Of a stretch of DNA of 64,000 nt, positions 34,583-41,788 are shown in pieces. A program made the translations under genes and the position numbers. Below the pieces are notes generated by a model. The model had not been told where the DNA came from and did no database searches. It saw only the letters and a list, made by a program, of their open reading frames with translations. Source of the stretch: an uncultured Acidobacteriota bacterium (GTDB taxonomy: Bacteria; Acidobacteriota; Thermoanaerobaculia; Multivoradales; UBA5704); contig CAVYRF010000002.1 in NCBI GenBank assembly GCA_963770895.1, positions 4,800,001 to 4,864,000 on the forward strand, in the 5' to 3' direction. Within the stretch, counting starts at the first letter, position 1. Each line of letters opens with the position of its first letter.

Positions 34583-34907
34583 ACCGGCGCCGCGAACCTG
34601 AAGCGGCACGGTCAGCCCGCGGTGTCGGCAGGGGCACGGAGGACGCGCCGGGACTGCGCACGCGACCCGTCGATCTCGACCTGGATCCAGGACGCGGCGG
34701 CCGCCAGGGCAGCGGGCGGGGCGGGGTAGTGGACTGGTTTTCCCACGACCGATCTTGCAGTTGGTACCGACTTTGCTTCGCGGAACCCGTCAGGGCCGCT
34801 TGCCACAGGTGGCTGGCAGGGGCGCGAAACCTGCGGGGCGGGGCGGCCGTAAGGTGGCACATGCGGCGGCGGTTGGTGCGCCGGCCGGTCATTGCGAGGT
34901 CCAGGCC

Positions 34908-37370
34908 ATGGGGAGCATCCTGCAAGATCTGCGGTTCGGCAGTCGCTTGCTGTGGAAAGACAAGGGTTTCACGCTCACCACGCTGCTCACGCTGGTGGTC
35001 TGCATCGGCGCCAATGCCGCGATCCTGGCCGTCGTCCATTCGGTGCTGCTGCGGCCGCTGCCGTTTGCCGAGTCGGACCGGGTGGTCCTGGCTTACAACA
35101 GCTATCCGGGGGCGGGGGTGGAGCGGTCTGACAGCGGCGTGCCGGATTTTTACGATCGCCAGCGCGACGTCAGTGCGTTCGAACAGATCGCGATGTACCA
35201 GGAGCGCGGCATGACGCTGGGCGGCGAAGGGTCGGCCTCGCGGGTGGATGGCACCGGCGTCACGCCGTCGTTCTTTCCGCTGCTGCGCGCCCAGGCGCTG
35301 CGCGGGCGGGTGTTTCGCGCCGAGGACGGGGAGGTGGGCGGTGAGCACAAGGTGATCCTGAGCTACGCGCTGTGGCAGCGCCTGTTTGCCGGCAGCGACG
35401 CGGCGCTGGGCAAGGACCTGCGCATCAACGGCGTGCCCTATGCGATCGTCGGCGTCATGCCGGCGGATTTTCTGTTCCTCAAGGCCGACACGCAGCTGTG
35501 GATTCCGCTGGCATTTACCATCAAGGAGAAGGCCGACGAGTCACGCCACAGCAACAACTGGACGATGATCGCGCGGCTGCGGCCGGGCGCCAGCGTGCGG
35601 CAGGCGCAGGAACAGATCGATGCGCTCAACGCGCGCAACCTGGAGCGGTTCCCGGCGATGAAGCTGGCGCTGGTCCGCGCCCGTTTTCACAGCGTTGCCG
35701 TGCCGCTGCAGGAAGACGTGGTGAGCACGCTGCGGCCGGTGCTCTACCTGCTGTGGGCCGGCGTGGTGTGCGTGCTGCTGATCGGTTGCGTGAACATCAC
35801 CAACCTGGCGCTGGTGCGCGCCAGCGGCCGTCTCAAGGAGCTGGCCACCCGCAACTCGCTCGGCGCCAGCCACTACCGCATCGTGCGCCAGCTGCTGATC
35901 GAATCGGTCCTGGTCACCCTGCTGGGCGGCCTGGGCGGCGTGCTGCTGGGCGCGTGGGTTCTCGGGTTCCTCGCGCGCCTGAACATGGACGACCTGCCGC
36001 GCGCCAGCGAGATCCACATGGATGCGTTTGTGGTGGCGTGCATGCTGGGAGTGGCGCTGGTGATCGGCCTGGTCATCGCCGTCGTGCCGGTGCTCAAGCT
36101 GTGGCGGGCCAGCCTGGGCTCGCTGCTGCGCGACGAGGGGCGCGGCGGCACCAGCGGCCAGGGGGCGCGGCGCACGCGGCGCGCGCTGGTCACGGCGCAG
36201 TTTGCGTTCGCCTTCATCCTGCTGGTCTGCGCGGGGCTCCTGGTGGTCAGCTTTCAGCAGGTGCTGGCCGTGCGTCCCGGCTTCGAGCCGGACGGCGTGC
36301 TCACGGCGATGATCAGCCTGCCGATGGCCCAATACAAGTCCGACGCGGAGATGCTGGGCTTCGTCCGGCGCGTGCTGGAGGCGACGCGGCGGCTGCCGGG
36401 GGTGCAGTCGGCCGGCATCACCACCTCGATCCCGTTTGGCGGCGACTACAGCGACAACGTCATCTTTCCGGAAGGCTATGTCGCCGACAAAGGCGAGGTG
36501 ATTTCGCCGAGCGAGCTGCGGGTCAGCGAAGGCTATCTCGAAACCATGCGCACCCGGCTGGTGAGCGGCCGGCTGTTCAACGCCGGCGACACCGCCCAGG
36601 CGCCCAAGGTCGTCCTGGTCGACACCCGGCTGGCACACAAGTTCTGGCCGAACCTGGACCCGATCGGGCGGCGGATCTTCCGGCCCCAGGACGCACAGCA
36701 CCTGGCGGCAGGCCCCAAGACGGAGTACTCCACGGTGGTGGGGGTGGTGGACACGGTGAAGCTGCGCGGCCTGGTCGAAGGGGACGCGCGCTTCGGCTCC
36801 TACTACGTCCCCTTTGCCCAGGGGCCGCAGCACTTCTGGACGCTGGCGGTGCGGTCGACGAGCGACCCCCGCCTGCTCACCTCGACGATCCGCGGCGTCG
36901 TGGCGGGGATCGATCCGGGCCTGCCCCTGTTCGGCATCCGAACGATGAACCAGCGCACCGCGTCGGCGCTCATCGGCCGGCGCGTGCCCATGCTGCTGGC
37001 GCTGGGCTTTGCCGCGGTGGCGCTGTTCCTGTCCGCGGTCGGCGTCTACGGCGTGCTGGCCTACCAGGTGGCGCAGCGCACGCGCGAGATCGGCATTCGC
37101 ATGGCGCTCGGCGGCACGGCGGCAACCATTTCACGCCTGGTGCTGGGTGAAAGCGTGCGCATGCTGGCGGTGGGTCTGGGCATCGGCCTGGTGGGCGCTT
37201 TTGTCGCCAGCCACGCGATGAGCACTCTGCTCTATGGGGTGCAACCCATGGATCCGCTGGTCCTGGTCACCGTGGCGATGGCCCTTGCGGGTGTCGCCCT
37301 GGTCGCCGCGGCCGTGCCCGCCCGCCGTGCGCAGCGGATCGATCCGGCCGTCGCCCTGGCGGCCCAGTAG
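34908..37370 (+). CDS. ADOP-type duplicated orphan ABC permease (MacB/FtsX x2)
   Basis: MGSILQDLRFGSRLL...VLLRPLPF, VLLIGCVNITNL, QRTREIGIRMALG, PARRAQRIDPAVAL; no adjacent ATPase. Confidence 0.93.
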   Translation: MGSILQDLRFGSRLLWKDKGFTLTTLLTLVVCIGANAAILAVVHSVLLRPLPFAESDRVVLAYNSYPGAGVERSDSGVPDFYDRQRDVSAFEQIAMYQERGMTLGGEGSASRVDGTGVTPSFFPLLRAQALRGRVFRAEDGEVGGEHKVILSYALWQRLFAGSDAALGKDLRINGVPYAIVGVMPADFLFLKADTQLWIPLAFTIKEKADESRHSNNWTMIARLRPGASVRQAQEQIDALNARNLERFPAMKLALVRARFHSVAVPLQEDVVSTLRPVLYLLWAGVVCVLLIGCVNITNLALVRASGRLKELATRNSLGASHYRIVRQLLIESVLVTLLGGLGGVLLGAWVLGFLARLNMDDLPRASEIHMDAFVVACMLGVALVIGLVIAVVPVLKLWRASLGSLLRDEGRGGTSGQGARRTRRALVTAQFAFAFILLVCAGLLVVSFQQVLAVRPGFEPDGVLTAMISLPMAQYKSDAEMLGFVRRVLEATRRLPGVQSAGITTSIPFGGDYSDNVIFPEGYVADKGEVISPSELRVSEGYLETMRTRLVSGRLFNAGDTAQAPKVVLVDTRLAHKFWPNLDPIGRRIFRPQDAQHLAAGPKTEYSTVVGVVDTVKLRGLVEGDARFGSYYVPFAQGPQHFWTLAVRSTSDPRLLTSTIRGVVAGIDPGLPLFGIRTMNQRTASALIGRRVPMLLALGFAAVALFLSAVGVYGVLAYQVAQRTREIGIRMALGGTAATISRLVLGESVRMLAVGLGIGLVGAFVASHAMSTLLYGVQPMDPLVLVTVAMALAGVALVAAAVPARRAQRIDPAVALAAQ

Positions 37371-37485: not shown

Positions 37486-37695
37486 TCAGGCAAGACCGGC
37501 TTGGGCCTGCCACACGCAGCCGGCGTAGCAGGTGTTGAAATAGCAGCTCTGCAGGCACGAATCGCCCGCCTGGCTGATGGGACTGACACCACCCTGCGCG
37601 ATGCCGCCGGCGAGGGCGGGGGTCTGCATCTGCGCATCGCTCAGCCGCTGCAGCGTCTCTTTTCCCAACCGCAACGTCCGCGTGTGCTTCTTCAT
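37486..37695 (-). CDS. RiPP precursor 1 (class I lanthipeptide-like, 69 aa)
   Basis: GAAGGAG RBS; MKKHTRTLRLGKETLQRL (LxLxKx5L) ... AGG, core ...SQAGDSCLQSCYFNTCYAGC. Confidence 0.8.
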   Translation of the reverse strand: MKKHTRTLRLGKETLQRLSDAQMQTPALAGGIAQGGVSPISQAGDSCLQSCYFNTCYAGCVWQAQAGLA

Positions 37696-38011
37696 GACGG
37701 CTCCTTCTCTGCCGGATCGAACCGGCGACACCTGCGTGATGATCGATTGCTTCGACGTGGCAACCTGGCCGCCGAGGCGGTACCTGTCAACCATAAGAGG
37801 TGCCGTGGGCGCACGCACCGGGGCCGCCCGGCCCCGGTGCGGCGCGCCGCCCGCGGCGCCGAGCGGCCGCGCGGCGTCCAGCCCTCGGACGCCGGCGCAC
37901 CGGCGACCGCGGGCGCCCGCCACGACCGGTCACCGCCTTGTGCTGTGCTAGCGTTGCGCCGGTGGCCGCGTGGAATGTCGCTGCCATGCTGCTCAAGGTG
38001 AGGAGGCGGCC

Positions 38012-38407
38012 ATGACCGCAGGAACCGGCGAAGGCATCGTCAGCAAGCCCAGCAGTCATTCGGTCGAGGAGACGGTGGCGCGGCTGACGGGCCTGCTGCA
38101 AGCCAAGGGCGTGACGCTGTTTGCCCTGGTGGATCACAGTGGGGAAGCCGCCAAGGTCGGGATGAGCATGCCTCCCACCAAGCTGCTGATTTTTGGCAGC
38201 CCCAAGGCCGGTACGCCGCTGATGCTGGCGGCGCCCAGCGCGGCCCTCGATCTGCCGCTCAAGATCCTGGTCTGGCAGGACGCCGGAGCCAAGGTCTGGG
38301 TCACCTACAACAGTCCCGCCTACCTCCAGCAGCGCCACGGTCTGCCCGCCGAGCTGCTGGCGAATATCGCCGTCGTCGAAGCGCTGGCCGCCAAGGCCGC
38401 GGAATAG
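38012..38407 (+). CDS. DUF302 domain protein
   Basis: LFALVDHSGEA, LLIFGSPKAGTPLM, ALDLPLKILVW. Confidence 0.9.
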   Translation: MTAGTGEGIVSKPSSHSVEETVARLTGLLQAKGVTLFALVDHSGEAAKVGMSMPPTKLLIFGSPKAGTPLMLAAPSAALDLPLKILVWQDAGAKVWVTYNSPAYLQQRHGLPAELLANIAVVEALAAKAAE

Positions 38408-38429
38408 GCAGAGAGGAAGAGCGATCGCC

Positions 38430-39293
38430 ATGGCTCACCACGAGTTTGACGCTGCCGAGTACAAGGCCGACCAGCGCCGGGCGTGGGACACCGCGGCCGC
38501 CGGTTGGCGACGCTGGTGGCAGGCGATCGAGCGCGGCTTGCAGCCGGTCTGCGACCGGATGCTCGACCTGGCGCAGGTGGCTCCGGGCGAGCGCGTGCTG
38601 GACGTCGCGACCGGCATCGGCGAGCCGGCGCTGAGCGCCGCGGCCCGCGTCGGCCCCACCGGTCATGTCGTGGCGACCGACCTGGCTCCCGCGATGCTGG
38701 CGATCGCCGCCGAACGGGCGCGCCAGGCGGGCGCCGGCAACGTGGAATTCATCCAAGCCGATGCCGAGGCGCTGGAGCTGGCACCCGCCAGCTTTGACGC
38801 GGTCCTGTGCCGCTTCGGCCTGATGTTCCTGCCCGATCCCGGCCGCAGCCTGGCCCGCATGCGAACCCTGCTCAAGGACGACGGCAGGATCGCCGTCGCG
38901 GTGTGGGGGCCGGCGGCCCAGGTGCCGATGATCGCCATGCCGCTGGCGGTGATCCGGCGCGAGCTGGAGCTGCCGCCGCCGCCCGCGGGGGTGCCCGGTG
39001 CGCTGAGCCTGTGCGACGTCCCCGCGCTGGAGCTCCTGGCGCGCGATGCCGGTCTGTCCGCGGTGGCGACCGAAACCGTCGAGACCGTGACGCACCTGCC
39101 TTCGCCGGACGCCTTTGTGCGCTTCCGTCAAGACATCGCCGCGCAGGTCCAGGAGCTGCTGGCGGGACAGAGCCCCGATCGCCAGCAGCGCGCCTGGCAG
39201 GCCGTCGCCCAAGCTGCCGCGGCCGACTACGGGCAGCCCGACGGCAGCATCCTCATGCGCAACCAGGCGATCGTGCTGACCGCCGCGGCGTAG
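38430..39293 (+). CDS. class I SAM-dependent methyltransferase (UbiE-like)
   Basis: VLDVATGIG, ATDLAPAML, FDAVLCRFGLMF. Confidence 0.9.
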   Translation: MAHHEFDAAEYKADQRRAWDTAAAGWRRWWQAIERGLQPVCDRMLDLAQVAPGERVLDVATGIGEPALSAAARVGPTGHVVATDLAPAMLAIAAERARQAGAGNVEFIQADAEALELAPASFDAVLCRFGLMFLPDPGRSLARMRTLLKDDGRIAVAVWGPAAQVPMIAMPLAVIRRELELPPPPAGVPGALSLCDVPALELLARDAGLSAVATETVETVTHLPSPDAFVRFRQDIAAQVQELLAGQSPDRQQRAWQAVAQAAAADYGQPDGSILMRNQAIVLTAAA

Positions 39294-39378
39294 ACCGCGG
39301 TGGCACAGCGAGCGGCCGGCGGCAGGGCGAGGGCGTCCGGCGCCGGCCGCGGCTCGCCAAACCGGCACCGGCCGCGGC

Positions 39379-39528
39379 TCAAGGGCAGGTGTCGGTGCAG
39401 GTGTGGGTGCAGACCTTGGCGTTGGAGCAGATCGCTCCCTCGGTCACCAGGCCGGCGACCACCTGCTGGAGTGTCATCCGGTGCAGCGTCTCGCGGCTGA
39501 GGTTGAGTTTTTTCGATTTCGGCTTCAT
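39379..39528 (-). CDS. RiPP precursor 2 (class I lanthipeptide-like, 49 aa; not in ORF track)
   Basis: AAAGGAG RBS; manual translation MKPKSKKLNLSRETLHRMTLQQVVAGLVTEGAICSNAKVCTHTCTDTCP; paralog of precursor 3. Confidence 0.88.
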   Translation of the reverse strand: MKPKSKKLNLSRETLHRMTLQQVVAGLVTEGAICSNAKVCTHTCTDTCP

Positions 39529-39753
39529 AAGAGCTCCTTTTCGATCGAACTCACCGAATATACCGTTGCGCGATCGCCATCGTCCATCGCCGGAGGGGGG
39601 CCGCCATCACGGGCACGCGTGGCGGCCGGTACGCAGGCGCGGGGGTCTTGCATAGGCCTGATCGGTGGCATGGGCCGCGGCGGGCGGCGGGCGCCCGGAT
39701 GGGCTTGGTAGCGAGCCCGCCCGACTGCCCTGCCGCCCGCTCTGGCTGGTGCT

Positions 39754-39915
39754 TTACGGGTTGCCGGTGCCGCAGGTGACGGTGCAATCCTCGGTGCACA
39801 CCTTGGCGTTGGAACAGATGAGGTTGTTGGTGACGGCGCCGGCGGCCACCTGCTTGAGCGTCATCCGATGCAACGTCTCGCGGTTGAGGTTGAGCTTTTT
39901 CGATTTCGGCTTCAT
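39754..39915 (-). CDS. RiPP precursor 3 (class I lanthipeptide-like, 53 aa)
   Basis: AAAGGAG RBS; MKPKSKKLNLNRETLHRMTLKQVAAGAVTNNLICSNAKVCTEDCTVTCGTGNP. Confidence 0.88.
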   Translation of the reverse strand: MKPKSKKLNLNRETLHRMTLKQVAAGAVTNNLICSNAKVCTEDCTVTCGTGNP

Positions 39916-40032
39916 TAAACTCTCCTTTCGGTCAAACAAACAAACTGGGTATACGGTTGTAAGCCGCAAGCTGTCTAACGCTGTAATGACAGCAGAAGTA
40001 GTGTGCGCCGCTAAGGTAGGTGCTCAGAGACA

Positions 40033-40198: not shown

Positions 40199-41788
40199 AT
40201 GGCGGGATCGCAGACGTTGTGGCGTCCGTTGCAGGTGCCGGTGTTTCGCCGGCTGCTGGCGGCGAACGTGGTGTCGGACGTCGGCGCGTTCATGCAGAGC
40301 GTCGGCGCGGCGTGGCTCATGGTGTCGTTCGGCGCCGGACCGCTGGCGGTGGCGCTGACGCAGACGGCGTCGTCGCTGCCGTTCTTTCTGCTGGCGCTGC
40401 CGGCGGGGGTGATCGGCGACCTGGTGGATCGCCGCAAGCTCATCCTGGCGACCGAAACCTGGATGGCCGGGTGCGCGCTGCTGCTCGCGGTGCTGACCCT
40501 GGCGGGGCGGGTATCGCCGTGGATCCTGCTGGGATTCACCTTTGCGATCTCGGCGGGCGACGCGATCGAATCGCCCAGCTGGCGCGCCGTTCTGCCCGAC
40601 CTGGTGCCGGCGGCGGACCTGCCCGCCGCTTCGGCGCTCAACGGCATCGAATTCAACCTGGCGCGCGCGGTGGGGCCGGGAGCGGCCGGCGCCCTGATCG
40701 CCGTGGCCGGCGTCGGCGCGGCGTTCGCCGTCAACGCGGTATCGTTCGCCGGCGTGATCCTGGTCATCGCGCGGTGGCGCCACCGGCCGGCGCCGCGCAC
40801 GACGCCCAGGGAGCACCTGCGGGGAGCGACGGTCGCGGCCCTGCGCTACGTCCACTATTCGCCCCAGATCCGCGGTCTCATCCTGCGCGCCGGCGCGGTG
40901 ATGTTCGGCGCCGGCGCGATCCTGGCGCTGCTGCCGACGATCGCCCACCGCGAGAGCCACAGCCCGCTCGGCTATGGGCTGCTCGTCGGCTGCTTTGGCG
41001 CCGGCGCGATCGCCGGCGCGCTGCTGATGCAGCCCGCCCGCTCCCGCTGGTCCACCGAGACGTTGACCTCGGGCGCCGTCGTCGGGCTGGGCGCGGCCAT
41101 GGTGGCGATCGCCTTCGCCCGCGGCCTGCCGGCACTGGCGGCGCTGCTGCTGGGCGCCGGCGCCTGCTGGATCGTCTTCATCTCGCAGGTCTCCGCGGCG
41201 GTGCAGGTCCTGGTGCCCGACTGGGTGCGCGCCCGCGCGCTCGCCATCTACCTGCTGGTCTTCCAGGGCGCCATGGCGGCCGGCACCGCGCTGTGGGGAG
41301 AGATCAGCGAAAAGGTGAGCGTGGACGCGGCGCTGGCCTCCGCGGGCCTGGTCACCCTGGTTTCCGCGGCGCTGGGCGCGGTCTGGCGGGTGCCGGACGG
41401 CCCCGGCGACGTCAGGCCCTGGGAGCACTGGCCGGCGCCGGCGCGTGCCACCGGCACCCTGCCCCTGCCGGCCCTCTCCGGCGGCCCGGTGCTGGTGACG
41501 ATCGACTACACCGTCGACCCGGAGAACGCCGCGGCGTTCGTCGCCGCGATGCACGCCTTCGAGCGCATCCGCCGCCGCGACGGCGCCGAGCAATGGGGGA
41601 TCTTCCAGGACAACGAGGCCCCCGGCCGCTTCGTCGAAACCTTCCTGGTCGACACCTGGGACGAGCACCTGCGCCAGCACACCCGCCTGACCCAGGCCGA
41701 CCGCGACGTCGCCGCCCGCGTCCAGGAGCTGACCCGCGGCACCCCGCTGGTGCGCCACCTGCTCTACGCCCCGCAGCCGGAATCGTAA
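40199..41788 (+). CDS. MFS transporter (DUF894/MFS_3 type with C-terminal soluble domain)
   Basis: 12 TM pattern, GDLVDRRKL, FNLARAVGP, C-terminal RIRRRDGAEQW...FVETF...WDEHLRQH. Confidence 0.9.
   Translation: MAGSQTLWRPLQVPVFRRLLAANVVSDVGAFMQSVGAAWLMVSFGAGPLAVALTQTASSLPFFLLALPAGVIGDLVDRRKLILATETWMAGCALLLAVLTLAGRVSPWILLGFTFAISAGDAIESPSWRAVLPDLVPAADLPAASALNGIEFNLARAVGPGAAGALIAVAGVGAAFAVNAVSFAGVILVIARWRHRPAPRTTPREHLRGATVAALRYVHYSPQIRGLILRAGAVMFGAGAILALLPTIAHRESHSPLGYGLLVGCFGAGAIAGALLMQPARSRWSTETLTSGAVVGLGAAMVAIAFARGLPALAALLLGAGACWIVFISQVSAAVQVLVPDWVRARALAIYLLVFQGAMAAGTALWGEISEKVSVDAALASAGLVTLVSAALGAVWRVPDGPGDVRPWEHWPAPARATGTLPLPALSGGPVLVTIDYTVDPENAAAFVAAMHAFERIRRRDGAEQWGIFQDNEAPGRFVETFLVDTWDEHLRQHTRLTQADRDVAARVQELTRGTPLVRHLLYAPQPES

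Follow-up and report, generated by a model that had tools for sequence, protein, structure and literature searches.

A scattered family of putative class I lanthipeptide precursors and a single distant LanB/LanC pair in an Acidobacteriota bacterium

Two described groups of lanthipeptides come closest to the genes analyzed here. One belongs to the marine picocyanobacteria and their class II enzymes, ProcM and SyncM. Going by the accessible portions of the published accounts, the prochlorosins comprise 29 precursor peptides (PMC12328550), the SyncA precursors number up to 79 (PMC9872173), and many of the ProcA genes are distant from the gene for LanM (PMC7268733). The other group is the class I lanthipeptides of Bacteroidetes, for whose LanAs an LxLxKx5L leader is reported in the part of the survey available to us; as described there, that survey considered only seven genes on either side of the LanC gene (PMC7268733). 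In a literature search that left most subscription journals out of reach, we found no description of a class I dispersed-precursor library or of such expansions in Acidobacteriota.

The window, by which we mean the whole stretch of 64,000 nucleotides that was analyzed (C2:4800001-4864000), contains three small precursor genes, which we call genes 1 to 3 (Table 1). A preliminary description had reported three small minus-strand genes with strong ribosome-binding sites (RBSs), and our analysis agrees with it on each structural point: the leader motifs LRLGKETLQRL (gene 1), LNLSRETLHRM (gene 2), and LNLNRETLHRM (gene 3) were found exactly as given, as were the AG/GG junctions (LAGG, VVAG, and AAG, respectively) and the cores with exactly 4 Cys and 5 (gene 1) or 6 (genes 2 and 3) Ser/Thr residues. 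All three genes therefore have the LxLxKx5L motif, with Arg in place of Lys in two of them, a Gly-Gly-type leader end, and a core that contains both Ser/Thr and Cys and is capable of forming rings. Each begins with ATG, 6 to 8 nt downstream of AAGGAG. Their GC content at third codon positions is 0.84, 0.88, and 0.91 and at first and second positions 0.45 to 0.59 (genome GC, 70.7%), which is the pattern of real genes in this genome. The promoter match upstream of gene 2 (1 site, compared to a mean of 0.1 in shuffled sequences) is a match to consensus only. The flanking permease, DUF302, methyltransferase, and MFS genes are also as previously described, and we found no functional link of genes 1 to 3 to any of them. 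Within the genus, DUF302 and MFS homologs are on different contigs without peptide orthologs beside them; because the neighborhood is not conserved, the neighbors say nothing about function.

Table 1. Coordinates of features in the window and of distant enzymes in the same genome (positions refer to the window unless contig C1 or C2 is named)
Feature	Position	Strand	Details
MacB_PCD+FtsX permease	34755-37370	(+)	Window neighbor
Precursor gene 1	37486..37695	(-)	69 aa; leader MKKHTRTLRLGKETLQRL...LAGG; core SC-x3-SC-x4-TC-x3-C
RBS AAGGAG of gene 1	37701..37706	(-)	Read from sequence
DUF302	37970-38407	(+)	Window neighbor
SAM methyltransferase	38430-39293	(+)	Window neighbor
Precursor gene 2	39379..39528	(-)	49 aa; leader MKPKSKKLNLSRETLHRMTLQQVVAG; core LVTEGAICSNAKVCTHTCTDTCP
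RBS AAGGAG of gene 2	39534..39539	(-)	Read from sequence
Sigma-70-like promoter match TGGACG-18-TATATT	39557..39586	(-)	Upstream of gene 2
Precursor gene 3	39754..39915	(-)	53 aa; leader MKPKSKKLNLNRETLHRMTLKQVAAG; core AVTNNLICSNAKVCTEDCTVTCGTGNP
RBS AAGGAG of gene 3	39922..39927	(-)	Read from sequence
MFS_3	40199-41788	(+)	Window neighbor
LanB, full-length	G000:C2:5180050-5183583		PF04738 + PF14028
LanC, convergent to LanB	C2:5178405-5180015		PF05147 + zinc-site motifs
C39 peptidase-ABC exporter	C1:1782768-1784981		With HlyD-like partner
C39 peptidase-ABC exporter	C2:2970253-2973840

We built a profile from the leaders and scanned the genome and its relatives with it, as the preliminary description had proposed. 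Small ORFs on all three contigs matched (82 at E ≤ 1e-3, 97 at E ≤ 0.05), compared to 0 matches at E ≤ 0.05 in a reversed six-frame control, and the family was also detected in 34 of 61 related genomes. The 97 genes occupy 87 loci, and 86 of them have a Shine-Dalgarno-like site (compared to 12% of random 20-mers). Genes 1 to 3, with E values of 1.3e-8, 1.7e-11, and 3.3e-12 against this custom profile, are real genes and represent three of approximately 80 to 100 scattered paralogs. In 1,200 sampled pairs of the 82 members at E ≤ 1e-3, mean pairwise identity was 40% for leaders (19% when shuffled) and 22% for cores (20% when shuffled), so the 82 to 97 genes fit a pattern of numerous precursors at scattered loci whose leader is conserved and whose core is hypervariable. 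Among the 67 of 97 members amenable to a leader/core split, the cores consist of 16% Cys, 15% Thr, and 8% Ser, and Ser/Thr(i)-Cys(i+5) pairs number 106, compared to 59 in shuffles.

The preliminary description also raised the possibility of an undescribed RiPP family, which we did not confirm, given that the leader is of the known LxLxKx5L type and is matched by NF038153, a model of class I lanthipeptide leaders. NF038153 is the sole NCBIfam match of genes 1 to 3 (18, 14.4, and 16.5 bits, all below the 22-bit cutoff), three paralogs exceed its cutoff (27.5 to 28.5 bits), and none of the three genes has a Pfam match at E ≤ 10. The system is best read as class I (LanB/LanC) with a known leader type, not a new RiPP class. 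In public data, leader-matching peptides make up more than 7,000 sequence clusters, nearly all of them without a name: 7,287 representatives of 50%-identity clusters match the profile at E ≤ 0.001 among 1.84 billion proteins. We looked up the names of eight of the top representatives and of two homologs of the gene 1 product (P0001), and all that had a name were labeled as hypothetical proteins.

Several features that might unite the 97 genes were tried and set aside. A k-mer search for a shared promoter gave only GGCAC-type words at variable positions (10 to 11 genes, compared to 2 to 3 expected) and allowed no conclusion; sigma-54 patterns occur upstream of only 0 to 1 of the 97 genes. An origin as a mobile cassette or by recent transposition was rejected using all-versus-all blastn of the 97 genes with 400-nt flanks, which gave 42 similar pairs, mostly overlapping flanks of neighboring genes; the sole clear duplication that reaches past the coding sequence is between C2:3876-3877 kb and C2:4747-4748 kb. 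Proximity to members of the duplicated permease family (45 copies) was not significant when tested per locus: a permease lies within 3 kb of 12 of 97 precursors (4.7 expected), and of 8 of 87 when precursors are collapsed to loci (4.25 expected, P = 0.055).

Whole-genome Pfam scans gave no match to LanB, LanC, LanM, C39, YcaO, or radical SAM domains inside the window, in line with the earlier statement that the 64 kb encode no modifying enzyme or C39 transporter. Across the genome, the scans gave 2 matches to PF04738, 14 to PF05147, 2 to PF13575, 9 to PF03412, 1 to PF02624, and 31 to PF04055 (radical SAM). The preliminary description had called for a search for these enzymes and had stated that a genome without a RiPP synthetase would refute its proposal; this is not the case here. 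The genome encodes one intact, full-length LanB and LanC (C2:5178405-5183583), located 342 kb from the window, and two complete C39 peptidase-ABC exporters. The LanB carries both domains (Lant_dehydr_N 2-645 of 649, Lant_dehydr_C 1-253 of 255) without stop codons, the nearest solved relatives are MibB and NisB, and the LanC keeps the motifs AHGVPG, WCYG, and CHG. A full dehydratase and cyclase are thus present in the same genome as the precursors, and for genes 1 to 3 they are not in the same cluster. Neither here nor in the three same-genus genomes that we checked does a precursor adjoin the LanB/LanC pair, and we found no plausible hidden small Cys-rich ORF with an RBS beside it. Only 8 of the 97 family genes have a LanB or LanC-like gene at a distance of 15 kb or less. 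The genome also has two LanM genes, approximately 10 stand-alone LanC-like genes, and a second LanB with only the N domain, some of which could handle a subset of the peptides.

We compared the distribution of the leader family and of LanB across the 61 related genomes. A PF04738 match is present in all 34 genomes with the family, and in 30 of them there is just one hit, scoring 475 bits or more; of the 27 genomes without the family, 17 have no LanB and only one has a strong LanB. Presence and absence of the two agree inside four genera (g5, g6, g7, and g8), and all five distant members of the phylum that have the family carry exactly one strong LanB. The family was therefore never seen without LanB in the 39 genomes tested. 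Because related genomes are not independent samples, these counts overstate the evidence. G041 has LanB but no member of the family; G002, G017, G026, G029, and G042 have LanB and a single member; and four family-rich genomes (G005, G013, G020, and G024) have LanB in pieces only. The five LanB pieces of G024 are all on the same strand and may represent a broken gene.

In five genomes of other genera (G026, G036, G037, G039, and G042), arrays of one to six precursors with the same leader adjoin LanB. The LanB proteins at these arrays are 47 to 60% identical to the LanB studied here over their full length, the LanC proteins are 42 to 52% identical, and the G042 cluster includes a C39 exporter. 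For a P0001 homolog in a Thermoanaerobaculia metagenome-assembled genome (L126), tblastn gave no hits to LanB, LanC, or the window neighbors within 7.7 kb.

Taken together, these data make it probable that genes 1 to 3 are class I lanthipeptide precursors (LanA) matured in trans by the distant LanB and LanC. The preliminary description had proposed that a library of dispersed precursors is processed in trans by a synthetase encoded elsewhere, an idea that now has the support of comparative genomics, though not of chemistry: 82 to 97 paralogs share a conserved leader in front of unrelated cores, an intact LanB/LanC pair has no precursor of its own, the leader family and LanB co-occur across genomes, and the same leader is found beside orthologous LanB genes in other genera. 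The genes, their family, the presence and intactness of the enzymes, the co-occurrence, and the adjacency in relatives were observed directly. That genes 1 to 3 are substrates is inferred, as are the ring pattern, the cleavage site, and the exporter. In the inferred pathway, the single full-length LanB, 342 kb away, would recognize the shared leader (MKKxxxKLxLxRETLxxL...L..AxGG), glutamylate core Ser/Thr residues using Glu-tRNA, and then eliminate glutamate to leave dehydro-residues, to which LanC would add Cys thiols to form thioether rings. Cleavage at the AG/GG site would then remove the leader, and one of the two distant C39 peptidase-ABC transporters would export the peptide. Dehydration and thioether rings in these three peptides remain inferred, without mass spectrometry or enzyme assay data.

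A predicted complex of LanB residues 1 to 800 with the leader scored 0.58, compared to 0.00 for the best of three controls, with contacts that agree by at least 64% between runs and a partner pLDDT of at least 51. When the method was calibrated, 58 of 80 solved complexes reached the mark, compared to 2 of 110 mismatched pairs; with scores of ≤0.60, only 7 of the 80 solved complexes did so, and both passing mismatches fall in this range. Because a NisB-leader complex is already solved, the result may reflect likeness to that structure rather than binding, and we treat the prediction as weak support for leader recognition.

A different fate for the peptides is conceivable, although we consider it unlikely: they could be unmodified or disulfide-bonded, cleaved and secreted by a C39 exporter after a double-glycine leader, with LanB acting only on the few members near the enzymes. 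The two complete exporters, the AG/GG leader ends, the even number of Cys residues (four, enough for two disulfides), and the lack of an enzyme near genes 1 to 3 are all compatible with this. Such peptides would not explain why the leader family was never found without LanB, why Ser/Thr residues are enriched at a fixed spacing before Cys, or why four Ser/Thr residues, which disulfides do not require, are invariant together with four Cys at i+5/i+6 spacing in the P0001 homologs. They would also leave the precursor-less LanB/LanC pair of this genus otherwise without a substrate.

Slightly less plausible still is that the peptides are lanthipeptide precursors matured by another synthetase, either a LanM (class II) or a stand-alone LanC-like protein with an unrecognized dehydratase. 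The genome has 14 LanC-like matches, two family members lie directly beside stand-alone LanC-like genes (C1:1568272 and C2:3323047), and a family member with nine Cys residues is 3.5 kb from the LanM at C2:4307702-4310992. However, the stand-alone LanC-like proteins are incapable of dehydration, an ELxxxxGG-type peptide of its own is encoded near the LanM at C2:272850, and in relatives the leader adjoins LanB, not LanM. LanM presence does not follow the leader family: no LanM was detected in 10 of the 34 family genomes, including G018, G027, and G034, which have 33 (in a 100% complete genome), 21, and 53 family copies, respectively, and 5 of the 27 genomes that lack the family have one.

We also considered whether genes 1 to 3 are decaying or silent family copies without a product, which the state of the genes themselves renders very doubtful. 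Their frames are intact, with strong RBSs and coding-type GC3. The gene 1 product has five homologs with 54 to 61% identity, in which S41, S46, C47, S50, C51, T55, C56, C60, and W62 are invariant, a pattern that, judged from the alignment, indicates selection on the core. For genes 2 and 3, no orthologs were found in a search of 5.8 billion database proteins or in 40 genomes of the family, which means that conservation offers them no backing, and their leaders fall short of the family consensus in length and terminate in AG instead of GG. The two genes are 79% identical. Against decay, their codons differ by 7 synonymous-only and 10 residue-changing differences with every Cys and its flanking Ser/Thr kept. 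Expression has not been demonstrated; the only sign of it is one 175-nt contig from an RNA library in which DNA may also be present. This contig spans positions 39656-39830 without mismatch and covers the end of gene 3, a point against silent copies. The library offered no exact cover for most of the 6-kb stretch, and we did not count this absence as evidence.

Finally, we consider modification by radical SAM chemistry (sactipeptide or ranthipeptide type) or by YcaO enzymes encoded elsewhere very unlikely. In its favor are the Cys-rich cores, the 31 radical SAM matches and one YcaO match of the genome, and a radical SAM gene 0.9 kb from the family member at C1:1001314. Against it, only 3 of 97 members by hand count have a radical SAM gene within 5 kb (approximately 3.7 expected by chance), and among NCBIfam and Pfam families the leader matches nothing but the model of lanthipeptide leaders.

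We are evenly divided on a broader proposal: that one LanB/LanC pair is a natural generalist for approximately 80 to 100 unrelated cores at separate loci per genome, in a layout common to a whole Acidobacteriota family and, independently, to a second family of the phylum. If this is correct, the system would be a class I counterpart of the prochlorosins, with more lanthipeptides in one genome than in any library to date. A single pair that handles approximately 100 unrelated cores would be a naturally substrate-tolerant class I enzyme pair; to our knowledge, only class II enzymes (ProcM and SyncM) have so far been exploited as substrate-tolerant tools in peptide engineering. Because 89 of the 97 precursor genes are more than 15 kb from LanB or LanC-like genes, genome mining restricted to the surroundings of the enzymes misses more than nine-tenths of the precursor genes in these genomes.

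The prochlorosins and SyncA peptides resemble this system in that one synthetase is accompanied by many distant, scattered precursors with a conserved leader, hypervariable cores, and unknown function; until now this layout had been seen only in marine cyanobacteria, with another class of enzyme. The prochlorosin-like logic suggested in the preliminary description thus holds for the layout and fails for the enzymes: instead of a bifunctional, ProcM-like LanM as sole synthetase, we found separate LanB and LanC (class I, Glu-tRNA dependent), and LanM presence, with two such genes in this genome, does not track the family. The leader is LxLxKx5L rather than Nif11- or nitrile-hydratase-like (no Pfam hit at E ≤ 10), and the CHG zinc motif of the LanC is the usual one. 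The host is a soil bacterium of the Acidobacteriota type with high GC content, and the copy number is higher (82 to 97). With the Bacteroidetes class I lanthipeptides (pinensin-type; Walker et al. 2020, PMC7268733; NF038153 lant_leader_L1a), the system shares the leader motif, the GG-type end, LanB with LanC, and, as far as the accessible part of that survey tells, a C39 protease-exporter that is often present. The same part describes the Bacteroidetes precursors inside gene clusters, in contrast to the dispersed genes found here; the window peptides also score below the NF038153 cutoff, and the phylum is different. A third comparison is with the clustered class I loci of related Acidobacteriota, which have the same leader family and orthologous LanB and LanC. 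Because those genera keep their precursor arrays beside LanB and this genus has none at the enzyme locus, the lineage provides a natural series in which to ask how a library comes to leave its cluster, and why.

The three peptides encoded by genes 1, 2, and 3 of the window are best explained as class I lanthipeptide precursors, with their chemistry untested. They would be matured in trans by a single pair of enzymes, a LanB (class I dehydratase) and a LanC (cyclase), and the matured peptides would be released by a C39 (peptidase-ABC type) exporter. Each gene has an ATG start and AAGGAG 6 to 8 nt upstream, the third-position GC content (0.84 to 0.91) matches that of genuine genes in the genome, whose overall GC content is 70.7%, and each core holds 4 Cys and 5 to 6 Ser/Thr. 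These features and the leaders support the preliminary description, which had proposed three small precursor genes. The adjoining genes are also those it named (a MacB_PCD/FtsX permease, DUF302, a SAM methyltransferase, and an MFS_3 transporter), and its claim that the 64 kb hold no modifying enzyme was borne out by whole-genome Pfam scans, in which LanB, LanC, LanM (class II synthetase), C39, YcaO, and radical SAM had no match inside the window.

Precursor genes of the window (positions from window start) and the LanB/LanC pair of the study genome (positions on contig C2)
Feature	Position	Strand	Length	Remarks
Gene 1	37486-37695	minus	69 aa	leader MKKHTRTLRLGKETLQRL...LAGG
Gene 2	39379-39528	minus	49 aa	leader MKPKSKKLNLSRETLHRMTLQQVVAG
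Gene 3	39754-39915	minus	53 aa	leader MKPKSKKLNLNRETLHRMTLKQVAAG
LanB, full-length	C2:5180050-5183583		1177 aa	complete for both Pfam domains and free of stops; single full-length copy
LanC	C2:5178405-5180015			convergent with LanB

Five homologues of gene 1 occur in public data (54 to 61% identity), and across them S41, S46, S50, and T55 and C47, C51, C56, and C60 are invariant; from their spacing in the sequence we infer that these residues would fit four overlapping rings (i+5/i+6). One homologue, in a Thermoanaerobaculia MAG, adjoins another member of the leader family (small ORFs with a KLxLxRETLxxL-type leader), and no LanB or LanC was found near it within 7.7 kb of sequence. Genes 2 and 3 are paralogues (79% identical) in which 7 codons differ synonymously only and 10 change the residue, with every Cys and flanking Ser/Thr retained; no orthologue of either was found among 5.8 billion proteins searched or in 40 genomes of the taxonomic family. 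A 175-nt contig of a soil RNA library equals 39656-39830 with zero mismatches, which is only a weak hint of transcription because such libraries can contain DNA.

The sole NCBIfam match of the three peptides was NF038153 (class I lanthipeptide leader), and none had a Pfam match. Genes 1, 2, and 3 scored 18, 14.4, and 16.5 bits against a cutoff of 22 bits and do not meet strict membership in this curated family; three paralogues elsewhere in the genome exceed the cutoff. For Bacteroidetes class I LanAs, Walker et al. 2020 (PMC7268733) describe the LxLxKx5L motif, often accompanied by a Gly-Gly end, and a C39 protease associated with it.

The study genome comprises 8.16 Mb in three contigs, with the window at C2:4800001-4864000, and a simple leader pattern returned 50 small ORFs from it. 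We ran the genome-wide leader scan suggested in the preliminary description, using a profile built from 52 seeds, all from this genome. Of the 97 ORFs that it recovered at E ≤ 0.05, 82 remain at E ≤ 1e-3, 69 at E ≤ 1e-5, and 37 at E ≤ 1e-10; a reversed six-frame control gave no match at any of these thresholds. The 97 genes are spread over all three contigs at 87 loci; 81 start with ATG, and 86 have a Shine-Dalgarno-like site, compared to 12% of random 20-mers. Across 1,200 pairs sampled from the 82 members that pass E ≤ 1e-3, mean identity was 40% in the leader (shuffled, 19%) and 22% in the core (shuffled, 20%); by this measure, conservation lies in the leader, the cores being unrelated to one another. 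For the 67 of the 97 members to which the leader/core split could be applied, core composition is 16% Cys, 15% Thr, and 8% Ser, and Ser/Thr is followed five residues on by Cys 106 times (59 in shuffles). Recent mobile spread is ruled out by the scarcity of DNA similarity between members, which indicates that the family is old.

Several other observations concern the surroundings of family genes. Two precursor clusters (C2:3876320-3877268 and C2:4747622-4748460) form a segmental duplication, approximately 83% identical over 270 nt, and two of their peptides have a nearly identical core. Words containing GGCAC are enriched approximately 4- to 5-fold 20 to 130 nt upstream of family genes (10 to 11 of 97 genes), at no fixed position and with no sigma-54 partner element found. 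The permease that abuts gene 1 (34755-37370) belongs to a MacB_PCD/FtsX duplicated-permease family of 45 copies, the other 44 lying elsewhere in the genome; permease-precursor adjacency across the genome was not significant (8 of 87 loci, 4.25 expected, P = 0.055). Of the four copies of an S15-type peptidase, three are immediate same-strand neighbours of a family precursor (C1:257832-260053, C1:652841-655249, and C1:859132-861583; locus-level P = 0.005, post hoc and uncorrected). The one copy checked has Peptidase_S15 and PepX_C domains, and the enzyme could act in tailoring or in trimming the leader.

Searching the genome for lanB/lanC and C39 genes, as had also been suggested, located one LanB/LanC pair, separated from the window by 342 kb, along with two complete C39-ABC exporters, of which one has an HlyD-like partner. 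The closest solved structures are MibB and NisB for LanB and a LanC-like protein and NisC for LanC, which retains AHGVPG, WCYG, and CHG motifs that we take to be the catalytic His and zinc ligands. No precursor was found beside the pair; the closest family member lies approximately 16 kb from LanC, and only 8 of the 97 have a LanB or LanC-like gene closer than 15 kb.

The genome further encodes two LanM genes, approximately 10 stand-alone LanC-like genes, and a second LanB-like gene (C2:4507910-4510687) with the N-terminal (glutamylation) domain only (129 bits), which overlaps the end of an opposite-strand 4412-aa ORF (4494669-4507907) and is itself followed by a TPR protein. Two stand-alone LanC-like proteins (C1:1580203-1581279 and C2:2707932-2709005) have neither the WCxG nor the CHG zinc-site motif, and one of their genes precedes a Cys-free leader-bearing peptide. 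Another (C1:1567258-1568097), adjoining a precursor at C1:1568272, has CCG in place of CHG. Near the LanM at C2:272850-276463 lies a small ORF of its own, whose leader is of the ELxxxxGG type and whose core contains Cys; this appears to be a distinct class II locus of the ordinary kind.

In five relatives, precursors with the same leader directly adjoin LanB: six in tandem in G039, two in G037, and one each in G026, G036, and G042, the last with a C39 exporter also in the cluster. Their LanB proteins are 47 to 60% identical to that of the study genome over the full length, and their LanC proteins 42 to 52%. No precursor was found near the LanB/LanC locus of three same-genus genomes (G002, G003, and G009).

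We searched 61 genomes (the study genome and 60 relatives) with a 23-leader alignment and Pfam families. All 34 genomes with the leader family have a PF04738 LanB match, as one hit scoring 475 bits or more in 30 and in pieces or weaker in G005, G013, G020, and G024; PF13575 LanM was not found in 10 of the 34, including G018 (33 copies), G027 (21), and G034 (53). Among the 27 genomes in which the family was not found, 17 had no LanB and 10 had some, only one strong (G041), and LanM was present in 5. Within genera g5, g6, g7, and g8, genomes without the family also lack a strong LanB. Because only 123 candidates were scored per genome, family counts are lower bounds (at least 83 in the study genome and 58 in the top relative). 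In G024, which has 25 members, the only LanB-like matches are five pieces on one strand (C3:1392860-1394854), which may reflect frameshifting or breakage of a gene, or errors in the assembly. In a phylum sample of 251 genomes (250 evenly chosen, at least 90% complete, plus the study genome), 11 carry the family, counting the unpublished G202; high counts are limited to G037 and to two families, that of the study genome and f46. A single strong LanB is present in each of the five distant carriers tested. Because related genomes are not independent, all these counts carry less statistical weight than they suggest.

A predicted complex of LanB residues 1 to 800 with the leader scored 0.58, compared to 0.00 for the best control, with contact agreement between runs of at least 64% and partner pLDDT of at least 51. 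Calibration of the tool passed 58 of 80 solved complexes and 2 of 110 mismatched pairs; only 7 of the solved ones passed with a score of 0.60 or below, as did both of the mismatches. The model gives weak support to LanB-leader pairing, and the existence of a solved NisB-leader complex may account for its passing.

Against a library of 1.84 billion proteins, the leader profile matched 7,287 representative proteins at E ≤ 0.001; ten proteins were checked (eight profile matches and two homologues of the gene 1 peptide), and all named ones are annotated as hypothetical proteins. In the literature, as far as its accessible text extends, we found no account of dispersed class I precursors forming such a library; the Walker survey (PMC7268733) was itself limited to seven genes around LanC. 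The preliminary description had proposed a prochlorosin-like library matured in trans. That logic remains the best supported, pending tests of the chemistry, and the likeness is one of way of working rather than membership: enzyme class and leader type both differ, which places the family outside the prochlorosin system.
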